64,000 bases of DNA, taken from Candidatus Omnitrophota bacterium. GTDB taxonomy: Bacteria > Omnitrophota > Omnitrophia > Omnitrophales > Aquincolibacteriaceae. This document shows, piece by piece, positions 10,257 to 62,738 of the stretch. The DNA is taken from NCBI GenBank assembly GCA_030698625.1, contig JAUYMS010000042.1:160423-224422 (forward strand). Direction: 5' to 3'. The notes below the pieces were generated by a model that was not told the origin of the DNA, made no database searches, and saw only the letters and a program-made list of their open reading frames with translations. How positions within the stretch are numbered: the first letter of the stretch is position 1; the number at the start of each line of letters is the position of its first letter. The position numbers and the translations under genes are program-made.

Positions 10257-11318
10257 ATGAAGATTGAAAAGATTGCCAAATCCGGCTTTGAAGAAATACT
10301 AGTCTGCGAAGATCAAGCCTCAGGACTCCACGCTATTATTGCTGTTCATAATACCCGGCTCGGGCCCGCCTTGGGCGGTATTCGTATGCATCCCTACGCA
10401 ACTACCGCTGACGCATTACGGGATGTCACACTTCTTGCGCAAGCAATGACTTATAAGTCGGCCGCCTCTGACCTTAAACTCGGCGGCGGCAAGGCCGTGA
10501 TCCTCGGCGATCCTGCCGCCGATAAAAGTCCCGAACGACTCTATGCCATGGGAAGATTCATAAATGAATTTAAGGGGCGCTACATCGCGGCCAAAGATCT
10601 TGGGATTACGACTGAGGATCTCATTGCTGTTGCCAAGGAAACAATATACATGACGGGGCTCCCTGAAACCATGGGGGGCAGCGGCGACCCCTCGCCTTGG
10701 ACTGCCGAAGGTATCTTTGCCGGAATACGCGCCTGCTTTCAATTCAAATTGAAGCAGCTCAATCTCGCCGGAGTGACCGTCGCCATACAGGGAATCGGCC
10801 ATGTGGGACTCGCGCTAGCGCGTCGCCTGCATAGTGAAGGCGTAAAACTTATCGTCTCGGACACGAATCCCGACCTACTAAAAGAAGTCGCTGAAAAGCT
10901 GGATGCGAAAGCAGTGCCCCCCGATGAAATCTATGATATGCCCTGTGAGGTCTTCTCCCCCTGCGCCATGGGCGGCATCATTAATGATAATACGATAAAG
11001 AGGCTACAATGTTCGATCATTGCAGGCGGCGCAAACAACCAGCTCGCCGATATGGAAAAACACGATCAGCTATTACGGGACCAGGGTATTCTTTACGCCC
11101 CCGATTACATTATTAATGCCGGGGGCGTTATCAATATCTACGTTAAAGATATTCTTAAAGAGGAAGACGCGATGCCCTGGATTCGGAAGATTAGCGGCCA
11201 TCTACTTGATGTCTTCGAGAGATCGGCTCAAAGCGGCAAGGGTGTGAATTTCGAGGCCGATAAGCTGACTCAGGCGAGACTCGAGCGGGCCTCGATAAGG
11301 CGGGATTCCGATTCGTGA
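10257..11318 (+). CDS. Leucine (branched-chain amino acid) dehydrogenase, Glu/Leu/Phe/Val dehydrogenase family
   Basis: 353 aa, collinear with Bacillus leucine dehydrogenase: GLHAIIAVHNTRLGPALGGIRM, KLGGGKAVI, GxGxVG NAD motif, PCAMGGIINDNTI, YAPDYIINAGGVIN. Confidence 0.85.
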   Translation: MKIEKIAKSGFEEILVCEDQASGLHAIIAVHNTRLGPALGGIRMHPYATTADALRDVTLLAQAMTYKSAASDLKLGGGKAVILGDPAADKSPERLYAMGRFINEFKGRYIAAKDLGITTEDLIAVAKETIYMTGLPETMGGSGDPSPWTAEGIFAGIRACFQFKLKQLNLAGVTVAIQGIGHVGLALARRLHSEGVKLIVSDTNPDLLKEVAEKLDAKAVPPDEIYDMPCEVFSPCAMGGIINDNTIKRLQCSIIAGGANNQLADMEKHDQLLRDQGILYAPDYIINAGGVINIYVKDILKEEDAMPWIRKISGHLLDVFERSAQSGKGVNFEADKLTQARLERASIRRDSDS

Positions 11319-11818
11319 CTATAGTCATCCTTTTCGCGATCGGGTCGTGACTGAATGAGAGCCGTCGAGATGGTGCCCGCAGTCACTGCCGAACCCGCAG
11401 CCGCGAAAGTCCCCGCCCCGCCCGCCGACGCGGCACCCGTTGCGACGGGCGCCGTCGCCAAACCGATAGCCCCCGCAGCTGTTCCCGCCGCCGCCAAGGA
11501 AGCCGCCAAGATATAGACCTTCTTGCGATCACTGACAGGGCCTTGGTATCCCACGTCACTCGGTCTTACATCGGGATCCAACATTCGATAGTCCGGTCTT
11601 ACGAGGGGGCCCAATTCCGGCTTTGGAATCCGGTCGAGATCAGGTTCTCGAGTGTCGACGATGGTGACATAAGGATTGCCGGTCTTCGGATGATTTCTGA
11701 CACGCACATCCGCATTAGATTCTTCGATAACCTCAGACGAATCGGCGGCATTCAGCGGCGCTGACTGCCGCCCGAGAAGCGCAAACACCATCAGAACCAC
11801 GAGATAAGTCTTCGCCAT
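11270..11818 (-). CDS. Hypothetical secreted protein with a Gly/Ala-rich C-terminal region
   Basis: Signal peptide MAKTYLVVLMVFALLG. Low-complexity AAGTAAGAIGLATAPVATGAASAGG tail. Overlaps the leucine dehydrogenase 3' end by 49 nt. Confidence 0.4.
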   Translation of the reverse strand: MAKTYLVVLMVFALLGRQSAPLNAADSSEVIEESNADVRVRNHPKTGNPYVTIVDTREPDLDRIPKPELGPLVRPDYRMLDPDVRPSDVGYQGPVSDRKKVYILAASLAAAGTAAGAIGLATAPVATGAASAGGAGTFAAAGSAVTAGTISTALIQSRPDREKDDYSHESESRLIEARSSLA

Positions 11819-11820
11819 CT

Positions 11821-12405
11821 TTATACCCCCAAAGTATCTTGCAAATGTTGCACAATGGCTATGACGTTATTCTCGATCGCTGCATTCAAATTAACTTCAG
11901 GGCCCCCTTTTTTGGCAAAGACCTTCTGGGCATCGCTTGTGCCTCGGGCCTCGAGGCGTGCCACAAACTCCAGCTCCGAATCATAGAGTTCCACTTCAGT
12001 GAGAAGCGTGACGGCCTGCCCCTTCAAGGTCACCTGATTACCGAAGTCTTTAATGCGAATCGCCGCGACATGCGCAATGGCATAGCGCTTCATAATCGCC
12101 TGCGTGGGCTCCGCTTCCATATATAGGAACTCATCAAATGCCCGCTGAAAGGCTTCAATCAGCATGGGCGTAATGGCCTCGCCGACATGGTAAGTTTGGG
12201 GATCAGCCAAACGGCCGCCGCGTTCCTGTGAGACATAGGTCATCACTTCTTTCGGAATATAGAGCGCGATGCGGGCAGGAGCCGGCTGCACGGTCTCATA
12301 GAAATGGTTAGAGAGCAACCCGGGAGCATGGATATCCCACCCAAAAAGGGCCACACAACCTGCGAGCCCTAGGGCGGTTGTCAAAAGGATATTTCGCAAG
12401 TTCAT
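11821..12405 (-). CDS. Hypothetical lipoprotein
   Basis: 194 aa. N-terminus LLTTALGLAGC is lipobox-like. Packed 2 nt from its neighbours. Confidence 0.5.
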   Translation of the reverse strand: MNLRNILLTTALGLAGCVALFGWDIHAPGLLSNHFYETVQPAPARIALYIPKEVMTYVSQERGGRLADPQTYHVGEAITPMLIEAFQRAFDEFLYMEAEPTQAIMKRYAIAHVAAIRIKDFGNQVTLKGQAVTLLTEVELYDSELEFVARLEARGTSDAQKVFAKKGGPEVNLNAAIENNVIAIVQHLQDTLGV

Positions 12406-12406
12406 T

Positions 12407-14140
12407 TTACGAAGGCCGATCCAATGTCTGCTTCAGAATCGCATTTTCCAAGGCAAGTTCTTTTCGGGCTCGAATGCGTTCCAAATGTTTTCCGATACGC
12501 TCTTCCGGGATCTTGAGATGCCGCATCACAAGCCGGCTGAGTTCGTAGCTGGCTTCCCATTCCTCCATCACCACCATATCCGCACCCAACTCATAAAGCC
12601 GCGGCATTTCTGTTTCGTACCGTGTGCGCACGGCAAGCATGACTTGAGAATTCAGTTGTTGAATAACGCGGATCACCTGCACCATACCTATGATATCCGG
12701 AAAACTCACAACCACTGCACGGGCCCGCTCTATCCCCGCTCGCTTCATGACCTCACGATTCGCCGCGTCACCGTATATAACCGATATGCGTTTCTTCCTG
12801 GCCTCCTGGACCTTGCTATGATTGAGCTCCACCAGAACGAAGGGGATGTTTTCTTCGAGGAAAGTCAGCGCCAGATCCTGCCCCGAAGGACCGAAACCGC
12901 AAAGGATCACATGGTCATTTACGGCCGGCAGGGCCGAAGGTGGGATTTTCCAATCCGCCGGAGGAGTTCCGAAGAAACCGATCCTTTCCGAAAGCGATAA
13001 GACCAGCGGAACTAACTTGAAAAGCACCGGCGTCATAAGCATGGTCAGAAAGGCCGTCGACAGGAGTACATGATACAGATAGAGGTCAATGCCCCCCGAG
13101 GCCCTGCCTGCCTCCAACAGAAGAAGCGAAAATTCACCGATTTGCGACAGCAAAATTCCCGCCGCAAGTGCGACTCGCGGGGCCATGCCGAAACACGTGA
13201 TGAGCACCGTCATGAGGACAAAGTTAACGAGCAAAACCAACCCGACCGTAACGGATACGACAAACGCGTTTTCCAACGCAAAATGGATATCAAACAGCAG
13301 GCCGATTGAAACAAAAAAGACACTCACGAAGATATAACGAAAGGGTGTTATGTCACCGATGAGAGAACTCCTGAAATCTGTGTTCGCAAACATGAAACCC
13401 GCGAAAAAAGCCCCGATCGCCAAGGACAGACCCAAAAATTCGCTCAACCAGGCCGTTCCGAGGCATACCACGACCGCGGTCAAAAAAACAATTTCCCGGT
13501 TACGCGTCACCGCCAAACGGTGCATCATACGCGGCAGTAAAAACCGTGAGAACAGCACAACGGCCGCCAGTAAGATCAGCGTCTTCACAAGTGCCATACC
13601 TAAAGTAATCGCAAGTGACGATGGCTGGCCCAGGCCGGTTGTAAAAATCAGTAGCGGCACTACCGCGATATCCTGAAAGAGAAGAATCGCCACAGCAATA
13701 CGACCGTATTGCGTATCAAGTTCACCGCGATCAATGAGGAATTTCAGGACGATGGCCGTAGAACTCAGAGCGATTACCGAGCCGAAAAAAAATCCGTCAT
13801 ACAGCGGACGGTCCCGCCACCACGCAAAGGCAAAACCGACTAAAATCGACAATAAGATCTGCAGCGTGCCCCCGAAAACCGCTAAATTCTTTAAGCCACG
13901 CATACGGTCCATCGAAAATTCCAGGCCGATCGTGAGCATGAGCAACATTACGCCGAGTTCCGCCATTTGGTGAATACGCCCTGAATCCGTCAAGATCCCA
14001 AATCCATGGGGCCCGACAATAACACCGGCAATAAGAAATCCAAGGATACTGGGGAGGCGCAGGCGCTCGAAGGTAACAGCGACAATGGTTGCCGTGATCA
14101 AAACGAGAATAAATTCTGTCAGAAATCCGGGAGTCCCCAT
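12407..14140 (-). CDS. Monovalent cation:proton antiporter-2 family K+ efflux protein with a C-terminal RCK/TrkA-N domain (KefB/KefC-like)
   Basis: Polytopic membrane N-terminal domain plus C-terminal VILCGFGPSGQ...YGDAAN Rossmann (TrkA-N). Start moved to the internal MGTPGFLTEF at about 14140 so as not to overlap DUF1223; the track ORF extends to 14236. Confidence 0.8.
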   Translation of the reverse strand: MGTPGFLTEFILVLITATIVAVTFERLRLPSILGFLIAGVIVGPHGFGILTDSGRIHQMAELGVMLLMLTIGLEFSMDRMRGLKNLAVFGGTLQILLSILVGFAFAWWRDRPLYDGFFFGSVIALSSTAIVLKFLIDRGELDTQYGRIAVAILLFQDIAVVPLLIFTTGLGQPSSLAITLGMALVKTLILLAAVVLFSRFLLPRMMHRLAVTRNREIVFLTAVVVCLGTAWLSEFLGLSLAIGAFFAGFMFANTDFRSSLIGDITPFRYIFVSVFFVSIGLLFDIHFALENAFVVSVTVGLVLLVNFVLMTVLITCFGMAPRVALAAGILLSQIGEFSLLLLEAGRASGGIDLYLYHVLLSTAFLTMLMTPVLFKLVPLVLSLSERIGFFGTPPADWKIPPSALPAVNDHVILCGFGPSGQDLALTFLEENIPFVLVELNHSKVQEARKKRISVIYGDAANREVMKRAGIERARAVVVSFPDIIGMVQVIRVIQQLNSQVMLAVRTRYETEMPRLYELGADMVVMEEWEASYELSRLVMRHLKIPEERIGKHLERIRARKELALENAILKQTLDRPS

Positions 14141-14144
14141 AGGC

Positions 14145-14891
14145 CTAAGGCAGGTACCCCCCCGTCGCCTGAACGGGTGTCGGGTCGTTTCCTTTTGTGA
14201 CCCACGTTGCCACCGCGTAGCGCTTTGATTCGACATCGGACGGAGCCTTAAGTGTTACGGTAGCCGCCAATTTATCCGCGTGAGGCTTCATAATACCGGA
14301 TTCATAACTGAGGACAACAAACTGATGATTCAAATTTCGCCCTCGGTTCTCCCCCGCCCGAACATCAGAACTTAAATCAAATCCGAGAAGCGCGCCGTAA
14401 GCGCGCCACTCTTTGCCCTGCTCTGCAGGAGTAAACGCAACCTCATATCGGCCTTCATCCTCCGCCTTCACTGCGAGCACACCGACTTCCTTATTATCTG
14501 ATTTCGGCACAGTCTTAGATCGGAACCAGCGGGGCCAGGGCCTGCCCGCCACGGCAAAACAAGGAGTGTAAATAGAAGGCTCTTGCCAAAGGCGCGCATA
14601 GACACGCTGGCGCTCCGTAAACGCAGGAGATGCGAAACGGTCTTTCCATCCCAGGTAATCCCAATAACCCACGTGAAACACCACGGGAACATAAGAACTC
14701 CAAAGATCCGGGGCTTCGGTTAAACCACTCACCCATTGGTCCGCGCGAGGACAACTGCTGCAGCCTTCGGAGGTGTAGAGTTCCAATAAATTTGTTCGAC
14801 GCGCACCACTCGTGAAGGTCTCTGCATAAATCGACGGCAAAACAAGGAGGAGGGCCAAGGGTAGAAGCCATGGCGTGCGCCGCAAAACCAT
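14145..14891 (-). CDS. DUF1223 family thioredoxin-like secreted protein
   Basis: Signal peptide, then ELYTSEGCSSCPRAD, the hallmark of DUF1223. Confidence 0.7.
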   Translation of the reverse strand: MVLRRTPWLLPLALLLVLPSIYAETFTSGARRTNLLELYTSEGCSSCPRADQWVSGLTEAPDLWSSYVPVVFHVGYWDYLGWKDRFASPAFTERQRVYARLWQEPSIYTPCFAVAGRPWPRWFRSKTVPKSDNKEVGVLAVKAEDEGRYEVAFTPAEQGKEWRAYGALLGFDLSSDVRAGENRGRNLNHQFVVLSYESGIMKPHADKLAATVTLKAPSDVESKRYAVATWVTKGNDPTPVQATGGYLP

Positions 14892-14895
14892 GGTA

Positions 14896-15468
14896 TCAAT
14901 CAGATGAAATAGTCACTTTTTTCATGGCGATGGTCTCCAGAGGCTTATCATTTGCAGCATGCGCCCGGGCAATCTTTTTTACGACATCCATGCCTTCCGT
15001 CACCTGCCCAAAAACAGAATGCCGGTTATCGAGCCAGGGCGTGGGAGCATCTGTAATAAAAAACTGGCTCCCGTTCGTATTGGGTCCTGAATTTGCCATG
15101 GATAATATGCCCGGCTTGTCGTGTCGCAAAGCCGATGAGAATTCATCATCGAACTTGTAGCCGGGGCCTCCCATTCCCGTCCCTGTAGGATCTCCGGTCT
15201 GAATCATGAAACCCGGTATGACCCGGTGAAATAGGATGCCGTCATAAAAACCCTTGTTCACCAGTTTGACGAAATTGTCCACAGTCTTCGGCGCTTCCTC
15301 GGCAAAGAGCTCCGCATAAATGTCTCCTACAGATGTCTCAATCTTAACTTTCACGATATTCTCATCCCCCCGTCTCGATGTTAATGTCCCCACGCCTGGT
15401 GTAGCGCCCACACGAGCTACACATCCCGCTGCGATGACGCATAAAATCAATAATAGCCACATTCTCAC
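14896..15468 (-). CDS. Peptidyl-prolyl cis-trans isomerase, cyclophilin type (lipoprotein)
   Basis: [14 protein letters not shown]...[17 protein letters not shown]...HSVFGQV. N-terminal lipobox AAGC. Confidence 0.85.
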
Positions 15469-15521
15469 GGGTTTATTTTATCACTAAACGTAGTCATGGC
15501 GATAGAAGGAAAGGGAATGAA

Positions 15522-15884
15522 TTAACGAACCCGCTGTTTGATTTCATGGATACGCCGCATGCAGAGATCCATCGCCTGCCGGGCATTCGTTGCATCTTCA
15601 GGTCGGGAATACTGCGGGCCCAGATTCTCGTATACACCCGCCGCCTTTTCAAAAAGTTTTCCGGCACGCGCATAAAGCGCAACTGCGGACTCGGCTCTCG
15701 CGCGGGTCATATTACCCTGCAACAGCTGCTCGGCCTGGGTCAAGATCGTCGTTGCGGCCAGAGCGTCGGCATTGGCCTGCTGGCGATAGACTTCCGGATC
15801 CTGCGTCTGCCCCAACGGCGCGCTGAGTAAAAGCAGAGGCATGGAAAAACTAACCAGTATAAAAATGCTTTTTTTGTTATTCAT
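15522..15884 (-). CDS. Hypothetical secreted protein
   Basis: 120 aa with a signal peptide. Helical and TPR-like by composition. Confidence 0.45.
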   Translation of the reverse strand: MNNKKSIFILVSFSMPLLLLSAPLGQTQDPEVYRQQANADALAATTILTQAEQLLQGNMTRARAESAVALYARAGKLFEKAAGVYENLGPQYSRPEDATNARQAMDLCMRRIHEIKQRVR

Positions 15885-15909
15885 CGATTGACCCCGTCAC
15901 CGGCGCACA

Positions 15910-16302
15910 TTAGTCCCCCGCTGAGGAATCGCCTATCTCGGTAAAACAGCGGTCGATTTCGTGGAGGAAATCCTGGGAATTGAAAGGCTTCGTGATATAG
16001 CGGTGCGCAAGATGCTCCATGCCCTTCTGAACGTTATCGCTTTGGTTAAGCGCTGTCAGCATAATAACGGGAATGTGCATGGTGTGCTTATCCTTTTTGA
16101 GATGCTCCAGAACCTGAAATCCGTCAAGTTCCGGCATCATCACATCAAGCACTATCACATCGGGATTAAATTTCTTAACCTTATGGAGCGCGTCTTTGCC
16201 GTCGACAGCCATTTCCACATCATAGCCGGCGTGTTCCAGGCGTTCCTTAATCACAATGCGCAGTTTCTCTTCATCGTCGGCGACGAGAATTTTCCTAGCC
16301 AT
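15910..16302 (-). CDS. Stand-alone response regulator receiver (CheY-like)
   Basis: ILVADDE...DVIVLDVMMPELDG...LTA...KP. Single REC domain, no output domain. Confidence 0.8.
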   Translation of the reverse strand: MARKILVADDEEKLRIVIKERLEHAGYDVEMAVDGKDALHKVKKFNPDVIVLDVMMPELDGFQVLEHLKKDKHTMHIPVIMLTALNQSDNVQKGMEHLAHRYITKPFNSQDFLHEIDRCFTEIGDSSAGD

Positions 16303-16523
16303 TAGAGGGACACCGTTTTTTGCAATGTTTTGAGAGCGGGTAACATTTCTATAATTGTACCACGTTCGTGTTTTGCCGGCTCTCGGGTCACATGGATCTC
16401 AATATGATGGGCGAGGTTTTCGTGACATTCTTCGTGCCCGCCGTGTGCCCAGGCCGTAAAACCGGGAAGCGCACCGAGAACCGTCACGAATAAAAAAACC
16501 CGCGCACGCGAGCGAAACGTCAT
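16302..16523 (-). CDS. Small His-rich secreted protein
   Basis: 73 aa with a signal peptide, then HGGHEECHENLAHHIEIH. Abuts the receiver gene start. Confidence 0.35.
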   Translation of the reverse strand: MTFRSRARVFLFVTVLGALPGFTAWAHGGHEECHENLAHHIEIHVTREPAKHERGTIIEMLPALKTLQKTVSL

Positions 16524-16695
16524 TAACGCGCCTCCGCTTTAATCACTAAAAAAGATAGAAAGAAATTCCTTGAGCATGTTCCCGCCGGACTCAGCAGATT
16601 CCACGACCCCGTCTATCATGCCTTTTAACTGATCCCCCGGCGCCCGCCACAACGCAAAAAGACGGTATTTCCACTGCCCTCGCTTCGACTCCTCT

Positions 16696-16908
16696 TCACG
16701 ACCCCCAAACCTCATACTCGTAGGTATGCGCTATATTCTTAGGCCCCTTAACGACAACACCCTCTAAAGGGGCCGCGACGACCCGCACAAGGCTTCGCCC
16801 CATATTATAAAGATGGTGGCGGGCAGACAAGGCATAGGCCGATGAGCTTTGAAGCATGAGGAGACAAAAACCGATCCGGGTAATCGTAACGTTGCGCATA
16901 GGCCTCAT
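16696..16908 (-). CDS. Small hypothetical protein
   Basis: 70-aa ORF filling the gap in the co-directional string. No recognisable motif. Confidence 0.25.
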   Translation of the reverse strand: MRPMRNVTITRIGFCLLMLQSSSAYALSARHHLYNMGRSLVRVVAAPLEGVVVKGPKNIAHTYEYEVWGS

Positions 16909-17462
16909 CGGCGTTCTTGAGCCTTTTCAACGAAGATCTTCTTGTCCTTAAGCTGGTGGATGAACTTTTTCAGTTCGGCATCACCGCGGTACGGCCAAAA
17001 CCCGAAACGCTTGGCTTCATGATAACCTTCTTTAGGCCCCCAGCCCTGGACCGCGACTCGATACACTGCAACCAAAGTACCGGTTTTATCCTTACCGCTT
17101 TCGCAATGAAGAAAAACCGGCTGTGCTCCACGATTCAACACAGTTTCCAAAAATTGAATAACGGTACTGTCTGCCGGCCTTTCGTACAGGCTCATAGGCA
17201 AGGAAGAAAAGTGCATTCCCAAGCCCTCGACGATGCCCCGCTCCTCGGCAACTCTTGCCGCATCTTCTTCGAGACTGATGACCGTCTTTACACCAAGCTT
17301 CGTGAGCTCGCTCCACTCGTCTTCCATCGGCCGCGGACCTCGATAGAACCCCTCATCGACAAGATAAAAGCCCGAAGCCCCTGACAAAAGCGGCTTATGC
17401 GCACACCCGGCGAGCCCCGTCAAGAGCGCACCCGCAAACACCCATCGAAGAAACTTAGACAT
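16905..17462 (-). CDS. Periplasmic lipoprotein with a protein-tyrosine/dual-specificity phosphatase-like fold (Siw14/TpbA-like), variant HCxxGKDKTG P-loop
   Basis: Lipobox LLTGLAGC. VFLHCESGKDKTGTL resembles the HCxxGKxRTG P-loop of Y_phosphatase2-type PTPs, with Lys at the Arg position. Confidence 0.6.
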   Translation of the reverse strand: MSKFLRWVFAGALLTGLAGCAHKPLLSGASGFYLVDEGFYRGPRPMEDEWSELTKLGVKTVISLEEDAARVAEERGIVEGLGMHFSSLPMSLYERPADSTVIQFLETVLNRGAQPVFLHCESGKDKTGTLVAVYRVAVQGWGPKEGYHEAKRFGFWPYRGDAELKKFIHQLKDKKIFVEKAQERR

Positions 17463-17467
17463 GGAAA

Positions 17468-18103
17468 TCAGGCATTATTATTGCGATAAATACCAACGGC
17501 AAAAATGGCCAGCGTCGCAACAAGTAAAACAAACAAGCCTGCATCCGGTTGAATGGCGGCTTCCTGAACAAAGTTCCTTGTCACAAAACCAAGAACCCCT
17601 TCGCCTGCCCTCTCAACAGCTGCATCAAAACCCTTCACCGCAGCCTGCCCCAAATAATAAACCCCGAACATCGAGTAAGCCGCGCCGATAAGTCCGATCA
17701 GAGAGGTGTAGACCAGCGGACTGCCCCTGCCGAAAGCCGCCAAGAAAAGGCCTCCGATCAAGGAGAGGTAGGTAACGATTAGCGCGACCGGAATCAAGGC
17801 GCCCAAAATAAAGGTTGGGGATAACCGCGTGAGCTCATTGGACTTCTTATCCCGCGGCAAGACCTTCTCCAGTAAGTCCGTAAAATCGTAATCAACCTTG
17901 AAGGATTTTTTTTTGCCGCCGCCGAAGATTTTTTGGGGAAGGGGTTCGAGGATCTGCTGAAGGCTCCAGCTCTTTGTCCCAAGCGGCGCCAGTTTCACCT
18001 GCAGAAGCGGCATAAAGTAGGTGCCGAGCCCCAGAAATAGAAGGATATAGATCGTGACCGTCGTAGTCTTCAGGGTCTGTTGTTTCGTTTTTCGTACCAT
18101 CAC
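17468..18103 (-). CDS. Hypothetical membrane protein (about 3 TM)
   Basis: 211 aa with hydrophobic helices. 4-nt overlap with the downstream receiver. Confidence 0.5.
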   Translation of the reverse strand: MMVRKTKQQTLKTTTVTIYILLFLGLGTYFMPLLQVKLAPLGTKSWSLQQILEPLPQKIFGGGKKKSFKVDYDFTDLLEKVLPRDKKSNELTRLSPTFILGALIPVALIVTYLSLIGGLFLAAFGRGSPLVYTSLIGLIGAAYSMFGVYYLGQAAVKGFDAAVERAGEGVLGFVTRNFVQEAAIQPDAGLFVLLVATLAIFAVGIYRNNNA

Positions 18104-18468
18104 TTGGCTAGCAAGTCCTCGATCGCTTTGAGGAGTTCTTGGATATCAAAGGGCTTCTGAAAAACACGATTAGCTCCCAGCTTCCGCGCCAAGTCTAGAT
18201 AATCCACAGGGATGAGTTTGGCTCCGCCCGACATTGCGATAATGCGGAGGTTGGGAGCCTCCTTCCTCAGGATGCGAATGGTCTCAACACCCTCCTGCTC
18301 AGGCATGAGAAGATCCGTAATAACGAGATCTGCCGCCTTTTCCCGGAACCGATCTACACCTTGTTTTCCGTCGGCGGCCAGAGTTACCTCATAGCCACTT
18401 TCAGTCAGAAAGGTTCCGAGTATCTCGCGAATATCCGTATTATCATCAATCACAATAATGTGCGCCAC
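18100..18468 (-). CDS. Stand-alone response regulator receiver (CheY-like)
   Basis: IIVIDDN...DLVITDLLMPEQEG...KP. REC domain only. Confidence 0.8.
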   Translation of the reverse strand: MAHIIVIDDNTDIREILGTFLTESGYEVTLAADGKQGVDRFREKAADLVITDLLMPEQEGVETIRILRKEAPNLRIIAMSGGAKLIPVDYLDLARKLGANRVFQKPFDIQELLKAIEDLLAK

Positions 18469-18486
18469 AGCTAACTCCTCTTGTTA

Positions 18487-18888
18487 TTACTCGGAATAAT
18501 GAACCGCCAGTGTTCTTTCAACATCGGCAAGAAGTTGGTCAATCTCAAAAGGTTTTGGGATATATCGCTCTGCCATGAGTTCCATAGCCCTGCTGACATC
18601 CTCGGGTTTCTGAGCCCCGGTCATCATAATAACCGGGATATGCTTTAAGGTCTCGTCTGACTTTATCGCCTGCAATGCCTCAAGCCCGTCCATTTCCGGC
18701 ATGGTTACATCCATGAGTATGAGGTGCGGCTTGATCGCCCGAGCCTTGTCGACGGCGTCTTTGCCGTTTATCGCCCCGACAGCTTCATAACCGCTCTCTT
18801 TTAAAACCTCAATAACGACGTCGCGAATCTCCTGTTGGTCGTCGGCGACAAGAATCTTTTTGCCCTGATGCGGGTTTCCTTCTGCCAT
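18487..18888 (-). CDS. Stand-alone response regulator receiver (CheY-like)
   Basis: ILVADDQ...LILMDVTMPEMDG...KP. REC domain only. Confidence 0.8.
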   Translation of the reverse strand: MAEGNPHQGKKILVADDQQEIRDVVIEVLKESGYEAVGAINGKDAVDKARAIKPHLILMDVTMPEMDGLEALQAIKSDETLKHIPVIMMTGAQKPEDVSRAMELMAERYIPKPFEIDQLLADVERTLAVHYSE

Positions 18889-18890
18889 GA

Positions 18891-19784
18891 CTAATAGACC
18901 TCTATCTTCAAACGTTTTTCGGACTTCATTTTTTTGACTAATGACCCCTCAACACCCGCCTCGGCGCCCATTTTATCGAGAACGGGGAGGATCCCCGCCT
19001 CCATCCCTTTTAGACCGCATATAAAAATCATGCTCCGCGGGTTCGTGAGTACCGGCTTAAGATCATCAGCTTGAAGCGCCATCTTGACCTGAACATACAT
19101 TCTGTCGTCCCGCGTCGGAACCTCATCGGGAACAGGATTGATCTCTTCCCGGCTTACGGCCCTATGGTAATGAAAATTTTTATGTTTTCGATAAGATTCG
19201 AACTCTTCATTATAAAAGCCCGTATCTCCATACTTCACGCCGAAAAAAAGCCACACCTGTCCTTTGTACCCGTTAGCAAAGAGCTGCTTCAACATGCCGC
19301 GATACGGTGCAATCCCCGTACCTGTTGCCACAAGCACAAGATCACGGCCTACAGCATCCGGCGGGAGAACGAAATTACGCCCAACGGGGCCGGTTAGGTT
19401 GACTTTATGCCCTGGCTCGAGATCGCATAGATAATTGCTGGCGACACCCGGAGTCTGAACCTGCCCCGGCGTATCACGGCGGAAATGACGCACCACACAG
19501 AGCGAGAGGGTCTGCTGATCTCCGTCGTCACCGGGGCTATCTGAAGCAACGGAATACAAACGCAACTTGTGGGGCTTTCCCGTGGCGGGGTCCGTACCTT
19601 CGGCAAGCACCCCCACACTCTGGCCCGGGGCATAAGGAAATTTCTCTGAATATCGAAAGGTCATGTGCCTCACGTCGAATTCCGCTCCCCGGCTTTCCGC
19701 TGTCAGACGGATATTGCTCAGGGTTTCCGCGCTGAGAGGGGCTTGTAAGGTGAATAAATTTAGGGCTATTTCCTGGGGCATCAA
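18891..19784 (-). CDS. Ferredoxin-NADP+ reductase, plant-type (FNR)
   Basis: RLYSVAS FAD-binding motif, GTGIAP NADP motif, C-terminal ...EVY. Confidence 0.85.
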   Translation of the reverse strand: MMPQEIALNLFTLQAPLSAETLSNIRLTAESRGAEFDVRHMTFRYSEKFPYAPGQSVGVLAEGTDPATGKPHKLRLYSVASDSPGDDGDQQTLSLCVVRHFRRDTPGQVQTPGVASNYLCDLEPGHKVNLTGPVGRNFVLPPDAVGRDLVLVATGTGIAPYRGMLKQLFANGYKGQVWLFFGVKYGDTGFYNEEFESYRKHKNFHYHRAVSREEINPVPDEVPTRDDRMYVQVKMALQADDLKPVLTNPRSMIFICGLKGMEAGILPVLDKMGAEAGVEGSLVKKMKSEKRLKIEVY

Positions 19785-20179
19785 GATTCTAGGAGTATAC
19801 TACCTCTATTGACAGCCCGGCAACGCCCTTTTTACGGGGCATTGACTGCATTTTAACGTTCACAAAGCGATAGAAGCGACCGAAAACAACAAAGAGTGGG
19901 AATTTCCTTCGCCCCTTTATTAAGTCGCTTCCCTCTCAAATAATAATTGTTGTCGGAATATACCGATGTCGTATAATGAACGCGTTTGCAACATTTCTCT
20001 TGCCGCTCTATTCTTTTAACTGAGGAACTTGTAAAGCCAGCGGAAAACGCCAGTACATGATGCATAAAAGCTTTGCTCGGCAGTTCCTGAGATTCTAGTT
20101 CGACTCACAGCCTTTTCCCATTCCCACTCTTCGAGGTCTCCTCGTCACTTCGCTCCTTGCCTTATCCGCTGTTTCCTCT

Positions 20180-21925
20180 ATGCCTGTCGCCTACGCCGAC
20201 TTATTGGGGGATACAAGCGACGAGGACCTTCTAGGTGAACGGAAGAGTGGAAGAGACACTGCCGACGCCACAGATTTAGATGACGCTCGCAAGGCGCACG
20301 AGGAGCTCTTTGCCGAGAATCGTTATCCGTCGGCCGCAACCTGCGCCACTTGTCACGCCAAGCAGTATCGCGAATGGTCGGTTTCTTCACACTCGTATTC
20401 ACAGCTCAGTCCGATCTACATGGCACTCAACAACACGATTAACGTGTTGGCGAGCGGTAGCAACGGCGATTTTTGTTTGCGCTGCCATAGCCAGGTCGGA
20501 GCAAACTTAGGCGAGAATCCCCGCATGTCGAATCTTGAGCGCCACCCGACATCCCGTGAGGGGATTACTTGTACCGTCTGTCACCGTATTAATAAGAAAT
20601 ATGATAAAGTCAGCGGCCGCATCGGCCTTGTTGAGGGCGGCCTGACCGAGCCCATCTATGGTCCTGGTGGCAACAAGATTCTTTCTGAGGTTCTGAGGGA
20701 CCCCAAGTTCAAAGTCGTAACCGATCCGAACCAGCCCGGCCGGAAAATTCACGACGAAGTTAAGTTCTTTGCGCCCATCTCCACATCAACGTTCTGCGGC
20801 TCATGCCATGACGTGACGCTTTTCAATGGCTTCCGTCTGGAAGAGGCCTTCAGTGAATACCGCATGTCCCCCGCGGCGCGGAAGGGCATTAGCTGTCAGG
20901 ATTGCCATATGGGCAAAGTTCAAGGTGTGGTCTCGGGTTATGATTTCGGACCGGCTGCGGTCGTGGGCGGCGTTCCTACCGAATCCAGAAAACTTACAAA
21001 TCATTTTTTTGCCGGTCCCGATTATTCCATCATTCACCCCGGCATCTTTCCTCACAACACCAAAGCTCAGGAGATGGCGACCTTGGAAGAGTGGCTGCGA
21101 TTTGATCACAAGGCCGGCTGGGGTACTGATTCTTTTGAAAATAAAGTCCCGCGCGATTTCAAATTTCCCGACCGCTGGCAGGCCCTTGACGACCGCTATG
21201 ACGCTCGCGCAATCCTCAACGATCAGTTCGAACTCCTGGCATGGGCGCGCGAACGACGGTTAGAGGCCTTGCGCAATGGGTACGGCCTCGGCGAGATCAT
21301 AATCAAGAAAGCGACGTCTTCAGGCATCAAGTTTAAGGTAGAGGTGAAAAACTTGACCAATGGCCACAACGTACCCACCGGGTTCACGGGTGAGCGGCCG
21401 GTTTGGCTTGATGTAACGGTCACCGACAGCGCCGGAACTGTCGTATTTCGGTCGGGCGACCTGGATCCTAACGGAGATTATCGCGACGACCATTCTTCGT
21501 ATGTGCGAACCGGCCGAGTACCTCTCGATACGCATCTATTCACGCTGCAATCGAAGTTTGTGGTCTCCAACATACGCGGGTCAGAGCGCGAACGCGTTAT
21601 CCCTATTCCCTACCCTCTTACGTCCCTTCCGCGCGTGCTGCCCGCACCGCAGTCTTTAGTGATCACGGGCGAGCCGTTTACCGAACGCAATCATCATAAG
21701 GGGATTCAGCCCGATGGTCGCCGCTGGGCGATGTATAAGGTGAAGGCCAAAGCCCTTACCGGGAAAAGTCCTTATAAGGCGAATGTCAAGTTGTGGAATG
21801 CGATGGTGCCGGTCAATCTTGTCGAAGCCATTCAATGGGTCGGGTTTGACTACGGGATGAGCGCCCGCGAAGTCGCCGATAACCTCCCAAAAAGAAATAC
21901 TATGGGAAAAGGATATTGTCATTAA
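20180..21925 (+). CDS. Pentaheme c-type cytochrome: five CxxCH motifs in the N-terminal ~240 aa, then a ~340-aa heme-free C-terminal domain
   Basis: CATCH, CLRCH, CTVCH, CGSCH, CQDCH. No signal peptide follows the annotated ATG, but the 27 codons in-frame upstream encode one (see findings). Confidence 0.8.
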   Translation: MPVAYADLLGDTSDEDLLGERKSGRDTADATDLDDARKAHEELFAENRYPSAATCATCHAKQYREWSVSSHSYSQLSPIYMALNNTINVLASGSNGDFCLRCHSQVGANLGENPRMSNLERHPTSREGITCTVCHRINKKYDKVSGRIGLVEGGLTEPIYGPGGNKILSEVLRDPKFKVVTDPNQPGRKIHDEVKFFAPISTSTFCGSCHDVTLFNGFRLEEAFSEYRMSPAARKGISCQDCHMGKVQGVVSGYDFGPAAVVGGVPTESRKLTNHFFAGPDYSIIHPGIFPHNTKAQEMATLEEWLRFDHKAGWGTDSFENKVPRDFKFPDRWQALDDRYDARAILNDQFELLAWARERRLEALRNGYGLGEIIIKKATSSGIKFKVEVKNLTNGHNVPTGFTGERPVWLDVTVTDSAGTVVFRSGDLDPNGDYRDDHSSYVRTGRVPLDTHLFTLQSKFVVSNIRGSERERVIPIPYPLTSLPRVLPAPQSLVITGEPFTERNHHKGIQPDGRRWAMYKVKAKALTGKSPYKANVKLWNAMVPVNLVEAIQWVGFDYGMSAREVADNLPKRNTMGKGYCH

Positions 21926-23451
21926 TGTCGCCCTGTAAAGGACATTCCGCTTATTACAAGGTTCTGTGTTGTTTTATCGCAGCGGCGATGCTTGTTTCCG
22001 TCCCTCTGCCCCGCTTAGGTTGGGCCGGAGGCGAACATGGCGGAATGGAGCACGGCGGAAGTGAATTTAAAGAACTCCATTCTAATTGGTACGACCCCTT
22101 TTACCCGTTGGGGCAGACGAAGGGTGCTAGCCGGCTCTCTGATGTGCCGGTTCCTTTTCAGGGAGTTGACAAGATACCGCCCCGCCCCAAACTCCATTTG
22201 GAACTCGGAGATCCGTTTCTGGATTCCGGTAATCTCTTCCCGGGTTTTGAATTACCTACGGGAGCCGTTTGGCAGCCGCGTCTTTGGAGTTACATGATTT
22301 ACCGTACCGCCCTACACTCTTTCGAGGTCAACGCGGATAGCCGGACATCGGAATGGGTCCATCGCTTGGACACGTATACTTCCTTGCAGCTGACGGGAAC
22401 CGAAAGAATTTTGGTTTCATTCCGCCCACTCGATAAGAACCGCTTTGATCAGTTTACGCGCTTTGATCTCGAAGATCCCAATAATGACGAGGGCTTCCGC
22501 CAGGAATTCAACTTGAATTTGCGTGCCCTTTTCATGGAAGGTGATATGGGTAGTCTCTTTCCCTTTTTAGATCCCGAGGGCATGCGGCCCATGGATTTCG
22601 GCTTTTCTGTCGGCCGTCAGAACCTCAACTTTCAAGATGGCATTATGCTCAATGACGACATGGATGCCTTGGCAATCGTGCGTAACAATATACGTATTCC
22701 CGCCATCGGTATCTCCAATTTGCGCATAACCGGTATGTGGGCCTGGAAAGGCAATGACCGCGGCGGCGGCATCACACCGCCAAACCGCCGTAGTCCGGAA
22801 GCCGATGTCTTTGGTTTATTCAATTCAGCTGATTTCCACAAGAGCACTATTAACATCGACGGTATCTTCATTTCGGATAATAAGACCAACGGCGGTGATG
22901 CCTTCTATACCGGGGTCTCGTCAATTCAGCGCATGGGTGCCTTCAATACAACGTTCCGCTGGCTGGGATCATATGCCGAAGATTCTACGACGCCGCAGAC
23001 AGGCTCGGGCCAGCTGCTGACGGGAGAAATATCCTGGACTCCGCATTCTTCAGACGACGTTGTCTATTTCAACCCCTTCATAGCCTTTGGCAATTACACG
23101 CAGGCAGGCCGCGAACCTATTCTTGGCGGTCCCCTAGCCCCACTCGGCATTCTCTTTGCATCACCGAATCTCGGCGATTATCGCGGCGAGATCGGCGGGG
23201 CCGCTCAAGATGTCTTTGGCGCGGCAACTGGTTATCAGGCCTTCTGGAATGATCACCACACCAACCTTGTCTTGGAGACCTCTTTCCGCAAGGATTATGG
23301 CGGACGCGGCACAGGCGTTTGGGGCGCTGGTTTTCAGTTGCAGCAGAAATTAGGTCAGCATGTCCAACTTCAGTTTGAAGCCTTCGCCTCTCTGCAAGAA
23401 AACCGCAAACGCGGTTACGGGGGACGTTCGGAAATTCTACTTGTATTCTAG
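21916..23451 (+). CDS. Outer-membrane beta-barrel protein (porin-like), likely partner of the flanking cytochromes
   Basis: N-terminal signal peptide. His/Gly-rich GGEHGGMEHGG segment. Alternating amphipathic beta-strand pattern. C-terminal ...SEILLVF with a terminal Phe, the OMP signature. 10-nt overlap with the upstream cytochrome. Confidence 0.6.
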   Translation: MSLMSPCKGHSAYYKVLCCFIAAAMLVSVPLPRLGWAGGEHGGMEHGGSEFKELHSNWYDPFYPLGQTKGASRLSDVPVPFQGVDKIPPRPKLHLELGDPFLDSGNLFPGFELPTGAVWQPRLWSYMIYRTALHSFEVNADSRTSEWVHRLDTYTSLQLTGTERILVSFRPLDKNRFDQFTRFDLEDPNNDEGFRQEFNLNLRALFMEGDMGSLFPFLDPEGMRPMDFGFSVGRQNLNFQDGIMLNDDMDALAIVRNNIRIPAIGISNLRITGMWAWKGNDRGGGITPPNRRSPEADVFGLFNSADFHKSTINIDGIFISDNKTNGGDAFYTGVSSIQRMGAFNTTFRWLGSYAEDSTTPQTGSGQLLTGEISWTPHSSDDVVYFNPFIAFGNYTQAGREPILGGPLAPLGILFASPNLGDYRGEIGGAAQDVFGAATGYQAFWNDHHTNLVLETSFRKDYGGRGTGVWGAGFQLQQKLGQHVQLQFEAFASLQENRKRGYGGRSEILLVF

Positions 23452-23503
23452 ACAGCCCATACCGTATTGCTATTTCATATCAGTCAAACGAAAGGATAAT
23501 CAT

Positions 23504-24511
23504 ATGCGTCTCTTTACCGCACTGTTATCTGCCATAATATTTTTTGCGAGTCCTGCGACAGCCGCGCAGATGTGGGATCCCATCGCCGATAACGAAAAAA
23601 TTACCGGCCCGGAATCCTGTGCGGAATGTCATGCAGACACCTTTCGAGTCTGGGAAGGGATGCATCACGCCACCACGTTTCGGGATATGCCTCGAAGTGA
23701 CGCGGCCCGTGAAATAGCCGATAAATTGGGCATTCAACGCATCAAAACCGAGCCCTTGTGTCTCAGCTGCCATTTTACGACGATGCTAACGGATACGGGA
23801 AAATCTAAGCCCGTGTCGGGTATTTCCTGTGAATCTTGTCACGGGGCCGGAAAGGATTGGATCAACGTCCACAGTGACTATGGCCCGGGAGCCGATAAGG
23901 ACACAGAGTCTGCTGATCACCGCGCCAAGCGACTTGCCGATTCCGAAGCCGCGGGTATGATTCGTCCGAGAAATCTGCACGCCTGGGCCTCCAATTGCTA
24001 CAACTGTCATACCGTGCCCGACGAAAAACTCGTAAACATGGGGGGACACCCCGCCGGAAGTAAGTTTGAACTTGTGTCCTGGTCTCAGGGAGAAGTGCGC
24101 CATAATGTCTGGTTTTCCGGCGGTGTGGACAATGTAATGGCTACACCCGAACGCAAACGCGTCATGTACGTTACCGGTCAGGCCCTCGACCTCGCATATG
24201 CCCTGCGCGGTCTTTCTAAAGCCACCGAAGGCGCCACCTATGCAATCACCATGGCGAAGAGGGCCAAGGCGGCAATGATCCGTCTCGGACAAATTGATGA
24301 AGCCCTTACCATTCCCGAAGTAAAAGAAATCCTTAAAGTTGCCGACGCCGTCAAGCTCGATCTCAATAATGAGGCTCAGTTGTCCGGCGCCGCTGACGAC
24401 GTTGCAAACCAGGCATTAAAATTTACTGAGGCCCATGACGGAAGTGCGCTTGCCGCATTGGACTCCCTCATTCCTTCGCCGGACGCCTTCCGCGGAACTC
24501 CCGCTGCCTAA
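23504..24511 (+). CDS. Tetraheme c-type cytochrome, secreted
   Basis: Start placed at MRLFTALLSAIIFFASPATAA (signal peptide, RBS AAAGGA upstream). CAECH, CLSCH, CESCH, CYNCH. The track ORF starts further upstream at 23360, inside the OMP gene. Confidence 0.8.
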   Translation: MRLFTALLSAIIFFASPATAAQMWDPIADNEKITGPESCAECHADTFRVWEGMHHATTFRDMPRSDAAREIADKLGIQRIKTEPLCLSCHFTTMLTDTGKSKPVSGISCESCHGAGKDWINVHSDYGPGADKDTESADHRAKRLADSEAAGMIRPRNLHAWASNCYNCHTVPDEKLVNMGGHPAGSKFELVSWSQGEVRHNVWFSGGVDNVMATPERKRVMYVTGQALDLAYALRGLSKATEGATYAITMAKRAKAAMIRLGQIDEALTIPEVKEILKVADAVKLDLNNEAQLSGAADDVANQALKFTEAHDGSALAALDSLIPSPDAFRGTPAA

Positions 24512-24659: not shown

Positions 24660-25856
24660 ATGGAAAATAAATTCTCCCATATTGAAAAGAGGAAATACCG
24701 ACGCAAGCCGACATCCGTGGCTGTCCGTTCCCTAAAAGAGGCGAAACGCGGCCTTTGGAAGCGCGCAAAGGCACTTGATCTTTCAGATACCGGCATACGC
24801 ATTTCCCTGCGCGAAGCGCCCGCTAAGGGAAGCCGCGTGCACCTCTCGCTCAAGTCAGAGCAAGGCAGCCGCCGCAGGCGTGTGGACGGGAAGGTTGTGT
24901 GGAAAAAGGGGCTGGAATGCGGCATACAATTTGAAAACCTTCGAGGAACTCCGAACAACGAGAAGTTGCTATTCTACATGGGCGACCGCATGTGTGAGTT
25001 TGTCGTCAAGTCAGCAGGATCCAATCTTGTCGCGCTGCCCGTTACAACGCTCACGGAGCACAAGGCCGCGTATCGGTTGATGTATCGAGAGTATCTGGCG
25101 CGGGGCTACTGCGCTAAACACGCGTCGAAGATGTACTATACTTCATACAGCTTGCTTCCCACTTCACGCACTTTTATTCTGAAGCAGCAAAAGCATCTCA
25201 TTGGGACGTTGTCCCTCTTTGTGGATTCACCCTGTGGACTTCCCATGGACCACACGGCCCCCGAAGTGACCGGCCAGCTACGCTTTCAGGGGCGACGCGT
25301 TGCAGAGGCAAGCCTCCTTGCCCTTGACCCAAACGCCTTTCGTGAGGGCACTCCCCCGCTTACCTACGCGCATCGCCTCGCGGGTTCCTTCTGGCTGTTC
25401 AAGACTTTGCTGGATTATGCGCGCCAAATCGCCGACGTTACGGATCTCGTCGTAACGGTGCACCCTAACCATGAGCACCTTTACCGCAACCTGGCATTCA
25501 AATCCATAAAACCCGCGACACCCTACGTCTTTGCCCGCGGCCATTTGGGGCTCCCGATGCATTTGGATGTGCGAGAGCTCGAGGCCCATCTTCCCGTCGG
25601 CACATGTTTTAAAAAATTCTTTTTCGACAATCTCCTGCCGTTAGATCAGCTAGCGAAGACTTACCGCTGGACGCCGGTTGCACTAAGTGACTTTATCAAC
25701 AAGCGGCAGGCAGAATGGCCCCAGATGATGCAGGGGGCCGTAGAATGGCTTAAGAGACGTTACCCGCTCGTGGCAGCCAGGACACGGCAAAAGAGCCACA
25801 AGACATCTGGTCTAAATGACAAAGGAGAGCCGCAGCTCTCCTTTGTCGGTATCTGA
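24660..25856 (+). CDS. PilZ domain fused to a FeeM/AHL-synthase-like N-acyl amino acid synthase domain (GNAT-related)
   Basis: N-terminus RKYRRKP...DLSDTGIRIS matches the PilZ RxxxR / D-x-S-x-G-G c-di-GMP-binding motifs. The C-terminal ~270 aa include AAYRLMYREYLARGYC, resembling the conserved core of exosortase-associated N-acyl amino acid synthases (TIGR03694-like). Confidence 0.55.
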   Translation: MENKFSHIEKRKYRRKPTSVAVRSLKEAKRGLWKRAKALDLSDTGIRISLREAPAKGSRVHLSLKSEQGSRRRRVDGKVVWKKGLECGIQFENLRGTPNNEKLLFYMGDRMCEFVVKSAGSNLVALPVTTLTEHKAAYRLMYREYLARGYCAKHASKMYYTSYSLLPTSRTFILKQQKHLIGTLSLFVDSPCGLPMDHTAPEVTGQLRFQGRRVAEASLLALDPNAFREGTPPLTYAHRLAGSFWLFKTLLDYARQIADVTDLVVTVHPNHEHLYRNLAFKSIKPATPYVFARGHLGLPMHLDVRELEAHLPVGTCFKKFFFDNLLPLDQLAKTYRWTPVALSDFINKRQAEWPQMMQGAVEWLKRRYPLVAARTRQKSHKTSGLNDKGEPQLSFVGI

Positions 25857-62732: not shown

Positions 62733-62738
62733 GAACCC

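Follow-up and report, generated by a model that had tools for sequence, protein, structure and literature searches.

The window analysed here, 64 kb from a contig of an Omnitrophota metagenome-assembled genome (MAG), carries on its minus strand, from 19784 down to 15910, a tight string of genes in which a ferredoxin-NADP+ reductase (FNR) and three stand-alone receivers (REC_A, REC_B and REC_C) flank a lipoprotein resembling protein tyrosine phosphatases (PTPs) as well as the small gene directly downstream of it, here called the partner gene. A sequence-only reading of this DNA had listed FNR, two receivers, a membrane protein, a PTP-like lipoprotein, small open reading frames (ORFs) and a last receiver, and had taken them for a phosphorelay or phosphate-sink module wired to a redox enzyme and a periplasmic phosphatase. 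When the components were called from an ORF listing together with domain scans (Pfam, NCBIfam), all of them were found on the minus strand where that reading had placed them:

18891..19784, minus strand: FNR, predicted plant-type ferredoxin-NADP+ reductase, 297 aa (PF00175, 6.9e-18)
18487..18888, minus strand: REC_A, stand-alone receiver, 133 aa (PF00072, 5.1e-28)
18100..18468, minus strand: REC_B, stand-alone receiver, 122 aa (PF00072, 5.8e-26)
17468..18103, minus strand: TM211, family-less membrane protein of 210-211 aa (hydropathy)
16905..17462, minus strand: lipoprotein with predicted PTP/dual-specificity phosphatase (DSP) fold, 185 aa (PF22741, 4e-14; PF03162, 5.9e-14)
16539..16908, minus strand: partner gene, split; predicted secreted helical hairpin, ~122 aa when intact (hidden Markov model and DNA alignment)
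16302..16523, minus strand: His73, His-rich ORF of 73 aa with a signal-peptide-like N-terminus
15910..16302, minus strand: REC_C, stand-alone receiver, 130 aa (PF00072, 1.6e-29)

Conservation of the string was analysed via a scan for the lipoprotein clade with one genome per species, which gave 36 loci, and via tblastn of every string protein against these loci within 8 kb. All 36 loci belong to Omnitrophota or to MAGs labelled as Planctomycetes-Verrucomicrobia-Chlamydiae (PVC). In 33 of the 36, the lipoprotein gene is followed immediately and on the same strand by the partner gene, and so it is in the additional loci L002, L004, L006, L048, L050 and L051; the three exceptions are a contig that ends just after the lipoprotein (L020) and two loci that carry a discoidin-domain gene (L024 and L026). 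The distance from the lipoprotein stop to the SxRHH motif of the partner has a median of 65 nt (21 loci in which the motif was located), and therefore the two genes abut or overlap. By contrast, FNR, TM211, His73 and the genes that follow REC_C in the window, namely those for a 120-aa protein, a cyclophilin, a DUF1223 protein and a Kef-type transporter, were found in 0 of the 36 genome loci, and a receiver was present in one of them (L030, 3.8 kb from the lipoprotein) and in the metagenomic loci L004/L005. The window itself carries the pair, since its lipoprotein has the GFWPYRG and IHQLKD motifs of the clade and the partner is present but frameshifted. The conserved unit is thus, as far as can be read from gene order and sequence, an undescribed envelope cassette of two genes that is confined to Omnitrophota and related PVC MAGs.

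The surroundings of the pair vary among the loci. In L024 and L026, whose lipoproteins belong to the same sub-branch as that of L020, a secreted F5/8 type C (discoidin) protein replaces the helical partner. A third secreted gene of ~130-150 aa follows the pair in 15 of 38 loci and is absent from the window; these are L002 (8018-8458) and 14 others, e.g., L008-L013, L015, L016, L018, L019, L022, L027, L029 and L031. Its product belongs to no Pfam family and has the conserved C-terminus ..ILRxKWKxxLGVDIFYPYFKAKEVExW..IKGKPxF..YIFKIKF. Secreted proteins with weak likeness to DUF5329, below the Pfam cut-off, stand beside the pair in L004 (8074-8532) and L050 (3053-3490), once downstream and once upstream.

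With regard to the partner gene, the sequence-only reading had placed two small proteins after the lipoprotein; the His-rich 73-aa ORF is indeed one of them, but the other is half of a split gene, whose 58-aa half had been overlooked. The partner is split into an ORF of 70 aa (16696-16908) and one of 58 aa (16539-16715) by a 1-nt insertion at ~16701-16706. The extra base lies in TGGGGGTCG, the frames joined across it match homologues end to end, and DNA alignment showed it to be missing from three relatives, L048, L050 and L051. When a hidden Markov model was built from 34 homologues, the fragments matched its positions 4-68 and 68-121, with 2e-24 and 2.5e-22, respectively. The window lipoprotein has a 100% identical counterpart among the annotated proteins of an Omnitrophota MAG, and an independent Logan assembly (run SRR13727534) is base-identical over 11.2 kb and has the same frameshift. 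Both the NCBI annotation of the MAG and the Logan gene calls list the 70-aa fragment (P0124) alone. The split gene could be a genuine pseudogene, or the extra base an error of assembly. Programmed +1 frameshifting was considered for the partner and rejected as the default explanation: the site, UGG GGG UCG UGA, has no known shift-prone context, and the three relatives do not have the extra base.

The partner is predicted to possess its own cleavable signal peptide, with ~95 residues left in the mature protein, and its AlphaFold2 (AF2) model is a two-helix hairpin with a predicted local distance difference test (pLDDT) score of 88, for which structure searches returned generic matches only. It is recognized by the motifs SxRHH...YEVWGRE...LFAxWRAP...KEFLSIFFSD, and its mean column identity of 63% exceeds the 51% of the lipoprotein. 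No Pfam or NCBIfam family was matched above threshold by the partner, and the same holds for TM211, His73, the 120-aa protein, the third gene of other loci and the DUF5329-like neighbours.

The lipoprotein has the lipobox LAGC with Cys20 and the P-loop HCESGKDKTG; across the clade Cys20 never varies and Gly19 almost never, and the protein is predicted to be exported, lipid-anchored and facing the periplasm. It scored 52.4 bits against PF03162 (cut-off 27 bits, residues 32-173) and 52.8 bits against PF22741 (PTP-NADK), also above cut-off, and because these two families score about equally its subfamily within the DSP clan is not uniquely assigned. A lipoprotein without the PTP fold, which the sequence-only reading had named as grounds for giving up its proposal, is not what was found: the AF2 model (pLDDT 89.4), in which a strand (116-120) and a helix (125-139) frame the P-loop, and Foldseek searches both point to the Cys-phosphatase (DSP) fold. 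Foldseek gave probability 1.0 for Siw14, 1xri (At1g05000/PFA-DSP1), TpbA, SsoPTP and DUSP23, with E values of 1e-9 to 1e-10 for Siw14, 1xri and TpbA.

The active site is atypical in the way that had been noticed from the letters, i.e., with Lys in the Arg position of the P-loop. H119 and C120 of the HCX5R signature are present, and C120 aligns with C132 of TpbA and is invariant in 34 aligned clade members. The CX5R Arg is absent, Lys126 being aligned with Arg138 of TpbA. According to the paper on the structure of TpbA (PMC4409338), every PTP retains the Arg of the PTP loop, whose mutation abolishes activity. About 80% of the clade members retain HCxxGRDRTG, and the Arg is replaced by K in the window protein, P0002 and L024, by L in P0010, L034 and L037, by I in L026 and by C in L033. 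In most of the clade another Arg precedes this position by two residues (GRDRTG), where the window protein has Lys too. As to the general acid, in PTPs an Asp of the loop before the P-loop, Glu94 lies opposite a loop Asp of TpbA, which we take to be Asp105 in the numbering of that protein; the Glu94 position is variable in the clade, whereas Asp98 (RPxD), aligned with the third Asp of the TpbA loop, is mostly conserved. The clade is furthermore marked by a specific C-terminal extension, GFWPYRG...FIHQLKDKK, both motifs of which occur in the window lipoprotein.

The suggestion that the locus might be under TpbA-type c-di-GMP control was borne out as to the kinship of the lipoprotein with TpbA but not as to c-di-GMP, for which no target is visible in the window. 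A regular-expression search found no ORF of >150 aa with a GG[DE]EF or EAL motif in the 64 kb, so that the analogy lacks a visible target of the TpbB/YfiN kind there. Likewise, the annotated neighbours of the lipoprotein in related loci showed no GGDEF/EAL genes, and the rest of the genome may hold a target. The only c-di-GMP-related domain seen in the window is the N-terminal PilZ (c-di-GMP receptor) domain of a plus-strand gene at 24660-25856, which is fused to an FeeM-type N-acyl amino acid synthase.

All three receivers look phosphorylatable from their sequences. REC_A has DD, Asp (LILMD), Thr (MMTG) and Lys (PKPF), REC_C has DD, Asp (VIVLD), Thr (MLTA) and Lys (TKPF), and the corresponding residues of REC_B are found in DD, VITDL, AMSGG and QKPF. 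A receiver without the acceptor Asp, which would have spoken against a phosphorelay, is hence not among them: DD, Asp, Thr/Ser and Lys are kept in every case. The string is free of histidine kinases and output domains, as had been noted, and domain scans detected no HisKA, HATPase_c or Hpt domain between 11270 and 19784; the sole HATPase_c ORF seen lies at 58750-59448, 39 kb from the string. Further two-component parts lie at that far end of the window: a stand-alone receiver (56395-56805), the 232-aa HATPase_c-only protein just mentioned (58750-59448), a double-receiver protein (61505-62335) and a 223-aa protein with a C-terminal receiver (62348-63019). Output-less receivers abound in this genome.

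A metagenome scan centred on REC_B yielded 80 loci (L052-L131) with receivers of 41-55% identity. In about 44 of these 80 a histidine kinase gene, coding for a PAS or hybrid kinase, ends at the receiver start, and tblastn detected neither the lipoprotein, the partner, FNR, TM211 nor any other string protein in the 80 loci. Receivers of this ITDLxMPE...AMSGG type occur widely in metagenomes from soil, peat and sediment. REC_B is accordingly an ordinary kinase-partnered receiver type that is orphaned in the window. As for REC_C, no orthologue was found near the lipoprotein in the other loci examined. L004 has a receiver two genes downstream of the lipoprotein-partner pair, with 28-35% identity to the window receivers (32-35% to REC_A and REC_C); that the L004/L005 receiver might be the REC_C orthologue was ruled out by this range of 28-35% to all three.

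The alignment of the FNR with FNRs of chloroplasts and cyanobacteria in the PDB (1e-60 to 1e-44) runs over its full length and takes in the terminal Tyr, the best match being 1sm4 (E 1.2e-60). Its translation shows RLYSVAS, GTGIAP, SRE and CGLKGM and ends in ...EVY, and judged by these features it is a plant-type enzyme, with two predicted domains, the RxYS, GTGxAP, SRE and CGxxxM motifs and an aromatic C-terminus. Close relatives are few: among 1.84 billion proteins only 85 clusters had representatives at E <= 1e-30, of which the closest is 52% identical and the others, <=46% identical, look plant or cyanobacterial-type. For the single 52% representative, whose gene context could be read from 2-kb contigs, DUF309 and YceI genes flank the FNR gene and no receiver adjoins it. 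A metagenome scan for close FNR relatives gave 381 pattern matches and zero true relatives. The FNR may have been acquired horizontally; the Leptospira FNR (2rc5), which is among the PDB matches, is presumably a horizontal acquisition as well.

The membrane protein between REC_B and the lipoprotein, TM211, had been read as a 3-TM protein; it is indeed predicted to be a membrane protein, but hydropathy identified four hydrophobic segments (15-38, 91-126, 130-148 and 182-208). It matched no Pfam or NCBIfam family and has no kinase or other transmitter domain. Two homologues were found (P0134 and P0135), both beside AhpC/Redoxin genes and away from the lipoprotein. The N-terminus of His73 is signal-peptide-like (..FTAWA|HGGHEECHENLAHHIEIH), and since neither Pfam, NCBIfam nor tblastn gave a match in any locus compared, His73 appears to be an orphan.

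The gaps between the string genes had been given as 0 to 20 nt; their tightness holds, but the measured range is -4 to +18 nt. FNR and REC_A are 2 nt apart and REC_A and REC_B 18 nt, TM211 overlaps the stop of REC_B (-4 nt) and is followed after 5 nt by the lipoprotein, the partner start lies over the lipoprotein stop (-4 nt), His73 follows the partner after 15 nt, and its stop overlaps the start of REC_C (-1 nt). The co-directional tight run moreover does not end at 15910 but extends down to 11270; beyond REC_C the order is a 120-aa secreted protein, a cyclophilin lipoprotein, a DUF1223 protein, a Kef-type transporter and two unknown genes. On its other side the string is bounded by a divergent intergenic region. 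Among these flanking elements are:

15522-15884, minus strand: secreted protein of 120 aa with a hydrophobic N-terminal segment
14896-15468, minus strand: cyclophilin lipoprotein (PF00160, 5.6e-54), lipobox AAGC, hydrophobic N-terminal segment
14145-14891, minus strand: DUF1223 protein (PF06764, 5.3e-43) with a signal peptide
19785..20179, no strand: divergent intergenic region of 395 nt between FNR and a plus-strand multihaem cytochrome operon

Co-directional gaps in the window as a whole have a median of 9 nt and measure <=25 nt in 65% of cases, with a coding density of ~0.9 (crude gene model). Because tight spacing is normal in the window, the short gaps are weak evidence for a joint function, and because seven REC domains in six genes occur within 64 kb, a receiver beside any given gene is expected by chance. 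Both the short gaps and the adjoining receivers belong to the background of this genome.

The FNR gene, with a likely ATG start at 19781, is the first after the 395-nt intergenic region. Two overlapping promoter-like sites lie upstream of it on the minus strand (19823-19794 and 19815-19786), which are consensus matches only; overall, 10 promoter-like matches were found compared to 5.6 +/- 2.2 expected, ~2 sd above shuffles. An internal promoter-like site at 17502-17474 is too near the lipoprotein start for interpretation. Separate promoters or terminators between the genes had been set beforehand as the observation that would count against a common unit, and neither the consensus scan nor folding revealed a convincing internal terminator: terminator-like matches (11 compared to 8.4 +/- 3.1 expected) are near chance. 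A candidate hairpin at 16513-16498, just past the partner stop, was discarded, as it folded no better than shuffles (z = -0.10). Separate transcription units are therefore not claimed. An Rfam search of 11000-21000 at E <= 0.1 matched no RNA element. The region 19785..20179 is the likely promoter region of the string, which is probably transcribed from there, upstream of FNR, at least in part; that its genes share one transcript starting in this region is plausible.

Two further observations concern the flanks. On the plus strand, at 20180-24511, two multihaem cytochromes (581 aa and 383 aa), which match the c554, c7 and MtrC/MtrF domain II/IV families, flank a family-less protein of 511 aa; this cluster may be a module for electron transfer in the periplasm or outside the cell. 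A 1385-aa ORF at 5868-10025 on the minus strand has no Pfam match at E <= 0.001.

Taken all together, these results favour the view, to which we assign a probability of roughly 0.6, that the string is a genome-specific dense array joining functionally separable pieces, among which the lipoprotein-partner cassette is the sole conserved unit. FNR and the three receivers are rather probably ordinary cytoplasmic genes that became neighbours by happenstance in a receiver-rich, gene-dense genome, and at most REC_B, possibly with TM211, has a lineage-level association with the cassette. With respect to the cassette, we propose that the lipoprotein and its partner, which is apparently translationally coupled to it, would form a complex at the membrane surface, in which the invariant P-loop Cys would act on a phosphorylated substrate of the envelope or periplasm, while the hairpin partner would be a regulatory or targeting subunit, or that substrate itself. 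The replacement of the Arg by Lys together with the frameshift in the partner suggests that the cassette is compromised or functionally shifted in the window genome.

Several observations weigh against this view. In L048, a REC_B orthologue (57% identity to REC_B, 31% to REC_A and 24% to REC_C) lies directly upstream of the cassette, 84 nt before a lipoprotein that is 58% identical, also has Lys at the Arg site and is followed downstream by an intact partner (65%). REC_B is the only minus-strand gene of the string (15910-19784) outside the pair with an orthologue beside the lipoprotein in a relative. In L051 (lipoprotein 57% identical), a DUF1223 gene (46%) lies directly upstream of the lipoprotein and a TM211-like C-terminal fragment 1.8 kb upstream of it, the order being TM211-like fragment, CBS protein, 111-aa protein, DUF1223, then lipoprotein and partner. 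L048 and L051 are two short contigs of one metagenome, and their residual synteny may reflect either inherited gene order or a functional link at the level of the lineage. Furthermore, the start/stop overlaps REC_B/TM211, lipoprotein/partner and His73/REC_C leave room for translational coupling that crosses functional boundaries, and the relatives compared share at most ~58% identity, so that in the immediate lineage the whole string may be conserved. As regards the state of the cassette, the Arg has also been lost in cassettes with intact partners (L033, L034, L037 and P0010), so that Lys126 need not mean decay and a non-canonical function of the lipoprotein family is possible; the frameshift, in turn, may be a sequencing or assembly error, both assemblies perhaps deriving from the same reads.

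The L048 and L051 contigs are also the basis of a narrower alternative, in which the cassette would belong, together with REC_B, TM211 and possibly DUF1223, to an envelope-sensing circuit of this sub-lineage, TM211 relaying a periplasmic signal to the receiver while FNR, REC_A and REC_C are bystanders. It is consistent with the order of REC_B orthologue, 84-nt spacer, Lys-containing lipoprotein and partner in L048, with the TM211-like fragment and DUF1223 gene within 1.9 kb upstream of the lipoprotein in L051, and with the window, where REC_B overlaps TM211 and the end of TM211 is 5 nt before the lipoprotein start. We nevertheless consider such a circuit unlikely: its support comes from two short contigs of one metagenome only, the gene order differs, L048 has no TM211 between receiver and lipoprotein, the TM211 homologues P0134 and P0135 are away from any cassette, TM211 has no kinase or other transmitter domain, and shared ancestry alone could account for the residual synteny.

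The integrated module of the sequence-only reading, in which the three receivers would connect FNR with a TpbA-like phosphatase in the periplasm by acting as a phosphorelay or phosphate sink, has in our estimate little chance of being right. Its components are not co-conserved, as FNR, TM211, His73 and DUF1223 were near the lipoprotein in 0 of the 36 genome loci and the cassette or FNR in 0 of the 80 REC_B-like loci; apart from the links in L048 and L051, co-occurrence of FNR, receivers, TM211 and lipoprotein was not found in related genomes. The gaps of -4 to +18 nt with three start/stop overlaps and the lack of a significant internal terminator would fit a module, but tight spacing and receivers are both common in the window. 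The phospho-acceptor pockets of the receivers are complete and, among solved structures, the lipoprotein comes closest in sequence to TpbA, but the window contains no GGDEF/EAL motif ORF. The REC_B orthologue adjoining the cassette in L048 is in favour of it, as is the receiver two genes downstream of the cassette in L004/L005, the latter with the reservation that the L004 receiver, at 28-35%, is orthologous to none of the three; the FNR relative, for its part, has no neighbouring receiver. Additionally, the compartments differ, cytoplasmic receivers being out of reach of a periplasmic Cys-phosphatase, and PTPs are not known to act on phospho-Asp.

It is also improbable, in our opinion, that the lipoprotein is not a phosphatase at all but carries out other thiol chemistry, e.g., persulfide or sulfur transfer as in DUF442/TIGR01244, or redox sensing, with the hairpin as a carrier or anti-factor. 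Cys120 is invariant in the 34 aligned members while the CX5R Arg becomes K, I, C or L, the DUF442 structure 3gxh is among the Foldseek matches, and weak NCBIfam matches were obtained for the TIGR01244 sulfur transferase (4.7e-4) and Blh (1.7e-3). However, ~80% of the members keep HCxxGRDRTG, the TIGR01244 score of 20 bits is far under the cut-off of 85.85 bits, and true phosphatases head both the family matches (PF03162 and PF22741, above cut-offs) and the structure matches (Siw14 and TpbA). A bolder combination, in which the pair is a new periplasmic system dependent on Cys but not on Arg (non-canonical phosphatase, thiol/redox sensor or pseudo-enzyme scaffold) and wired in the sub-lineage of the window genome via TM211 and REC_B to two-component signalling, and perhaps to an FNR-dependent redox state, would be a long shot.

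The picture of a dense array with a two-gene conserved core is of interest for several reasons. In the Omnitrophota, which are widespread and uncultivated, very few genes of the phylum have been characterised, and an exported conserved pair offers a handle on their envelope biology. The partner has no family assignment, yet it is more conserved than the enzyme that it accompanies. Repeated loss of the Arg with an invariant Cys is a small biochemical puzzle, whose solution could lie in a pseudophosphatase, in altered chemistry or in the Arg two positions before it taking over. Moreover, the string is a caution for genome scanning: synteny tests reduced an eight-gene 'module' to a two-gene core, and a tight co-directional string of suggestive domains in a gene-dense, receiver-rich genome is not evidence of a system.

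Compared with known systems, the three receivers resemble stand-alone CheY-like single-domain response regulators (PF00072, 91-103 bits with a cut-off of 30.2). They differ from the usual CheY-like setting in that no histidine kinase, Hpt domain or chemotaxis genes adjoin them, and they score below the cut-offs of all NCBIfam equivalogs, e.g., CpdR (67.9 vs 180) and DVU0259/DivK (73.6 vs 160). The FNR is similar to plant-type (plastidic-class) FNRs from paprika (1sm4), spinach (1fnb), Anabaena (1que) and Leptospira (2rc5), with which it aligns over its full length at E 1e-60 to 1e-39 and shares two domains, FAD and NADP motifs and the terminal Tyr; it departs from these examples in its host, an Omnitrophota MAG, and in its identity of 40-46% to plant and cyanobacterial-type representatives. 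In comparison to cyanobacterial PetH, the CpcD-like N-terminal linker domain is absent, because of which the equivalog score was 223 bits and the 600-bit cut-off was missed.

For the lipoprotein, the best sequence match among solved structures is TpbA (PA3885) of Pseudomonas aeruginosa (2m3v, 4r0s; PMC4409338, PMC2691606), with E 1.1e-10 for 2m3v over residues 31-156. Both share the DSP fold (Foldseek E 5e-9, TM-score 0.67-0.77), predicted periplasmic export, a similar size and a P-loop of the form HC-x2-G-x2-[RK]-TG. However, TpbA is a soluble periplasmic dual-specificity tyrosine phosphatase with the catalytic Arg138, whereas the window protein is predicted to be lipid-anchored, is ~24% identical and has Lys at this position as well as the Omnitrophota-specific C-terminal extension. 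To our knowledge, TpbA has no downstream partner gene, unlike the window protein with its obligate one. The top Foldseek match was to the PFA-DSP/Siw14 proteins (PF03162 Y_phosphatase2; 6byf, 1xri, 7mod), with E 3.5e-10 and TM-scores of 0.69/0.77, whose P-loop of the HCxxGKxRTG type is similar to that of the window protein. These are eukaryotic, cytosolic inositol pyrophosphate phosphatases of fungi and plants, whereas the window protein, with 21-26% identity and the Arg replaced by Lys, is a predicted exported bacterial lipoprotein; we know of no inositol pyrophosphates in the bacterial periplasm. Among the papers searched, none connects Omnitrophota with tyrosine phosphatases or reports a periplasmic DSP lipoprotein that has a partner. 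What is new here is the undescribed, phylum-restricted two-gene cassette, the fold of its lipoprotein being already known.

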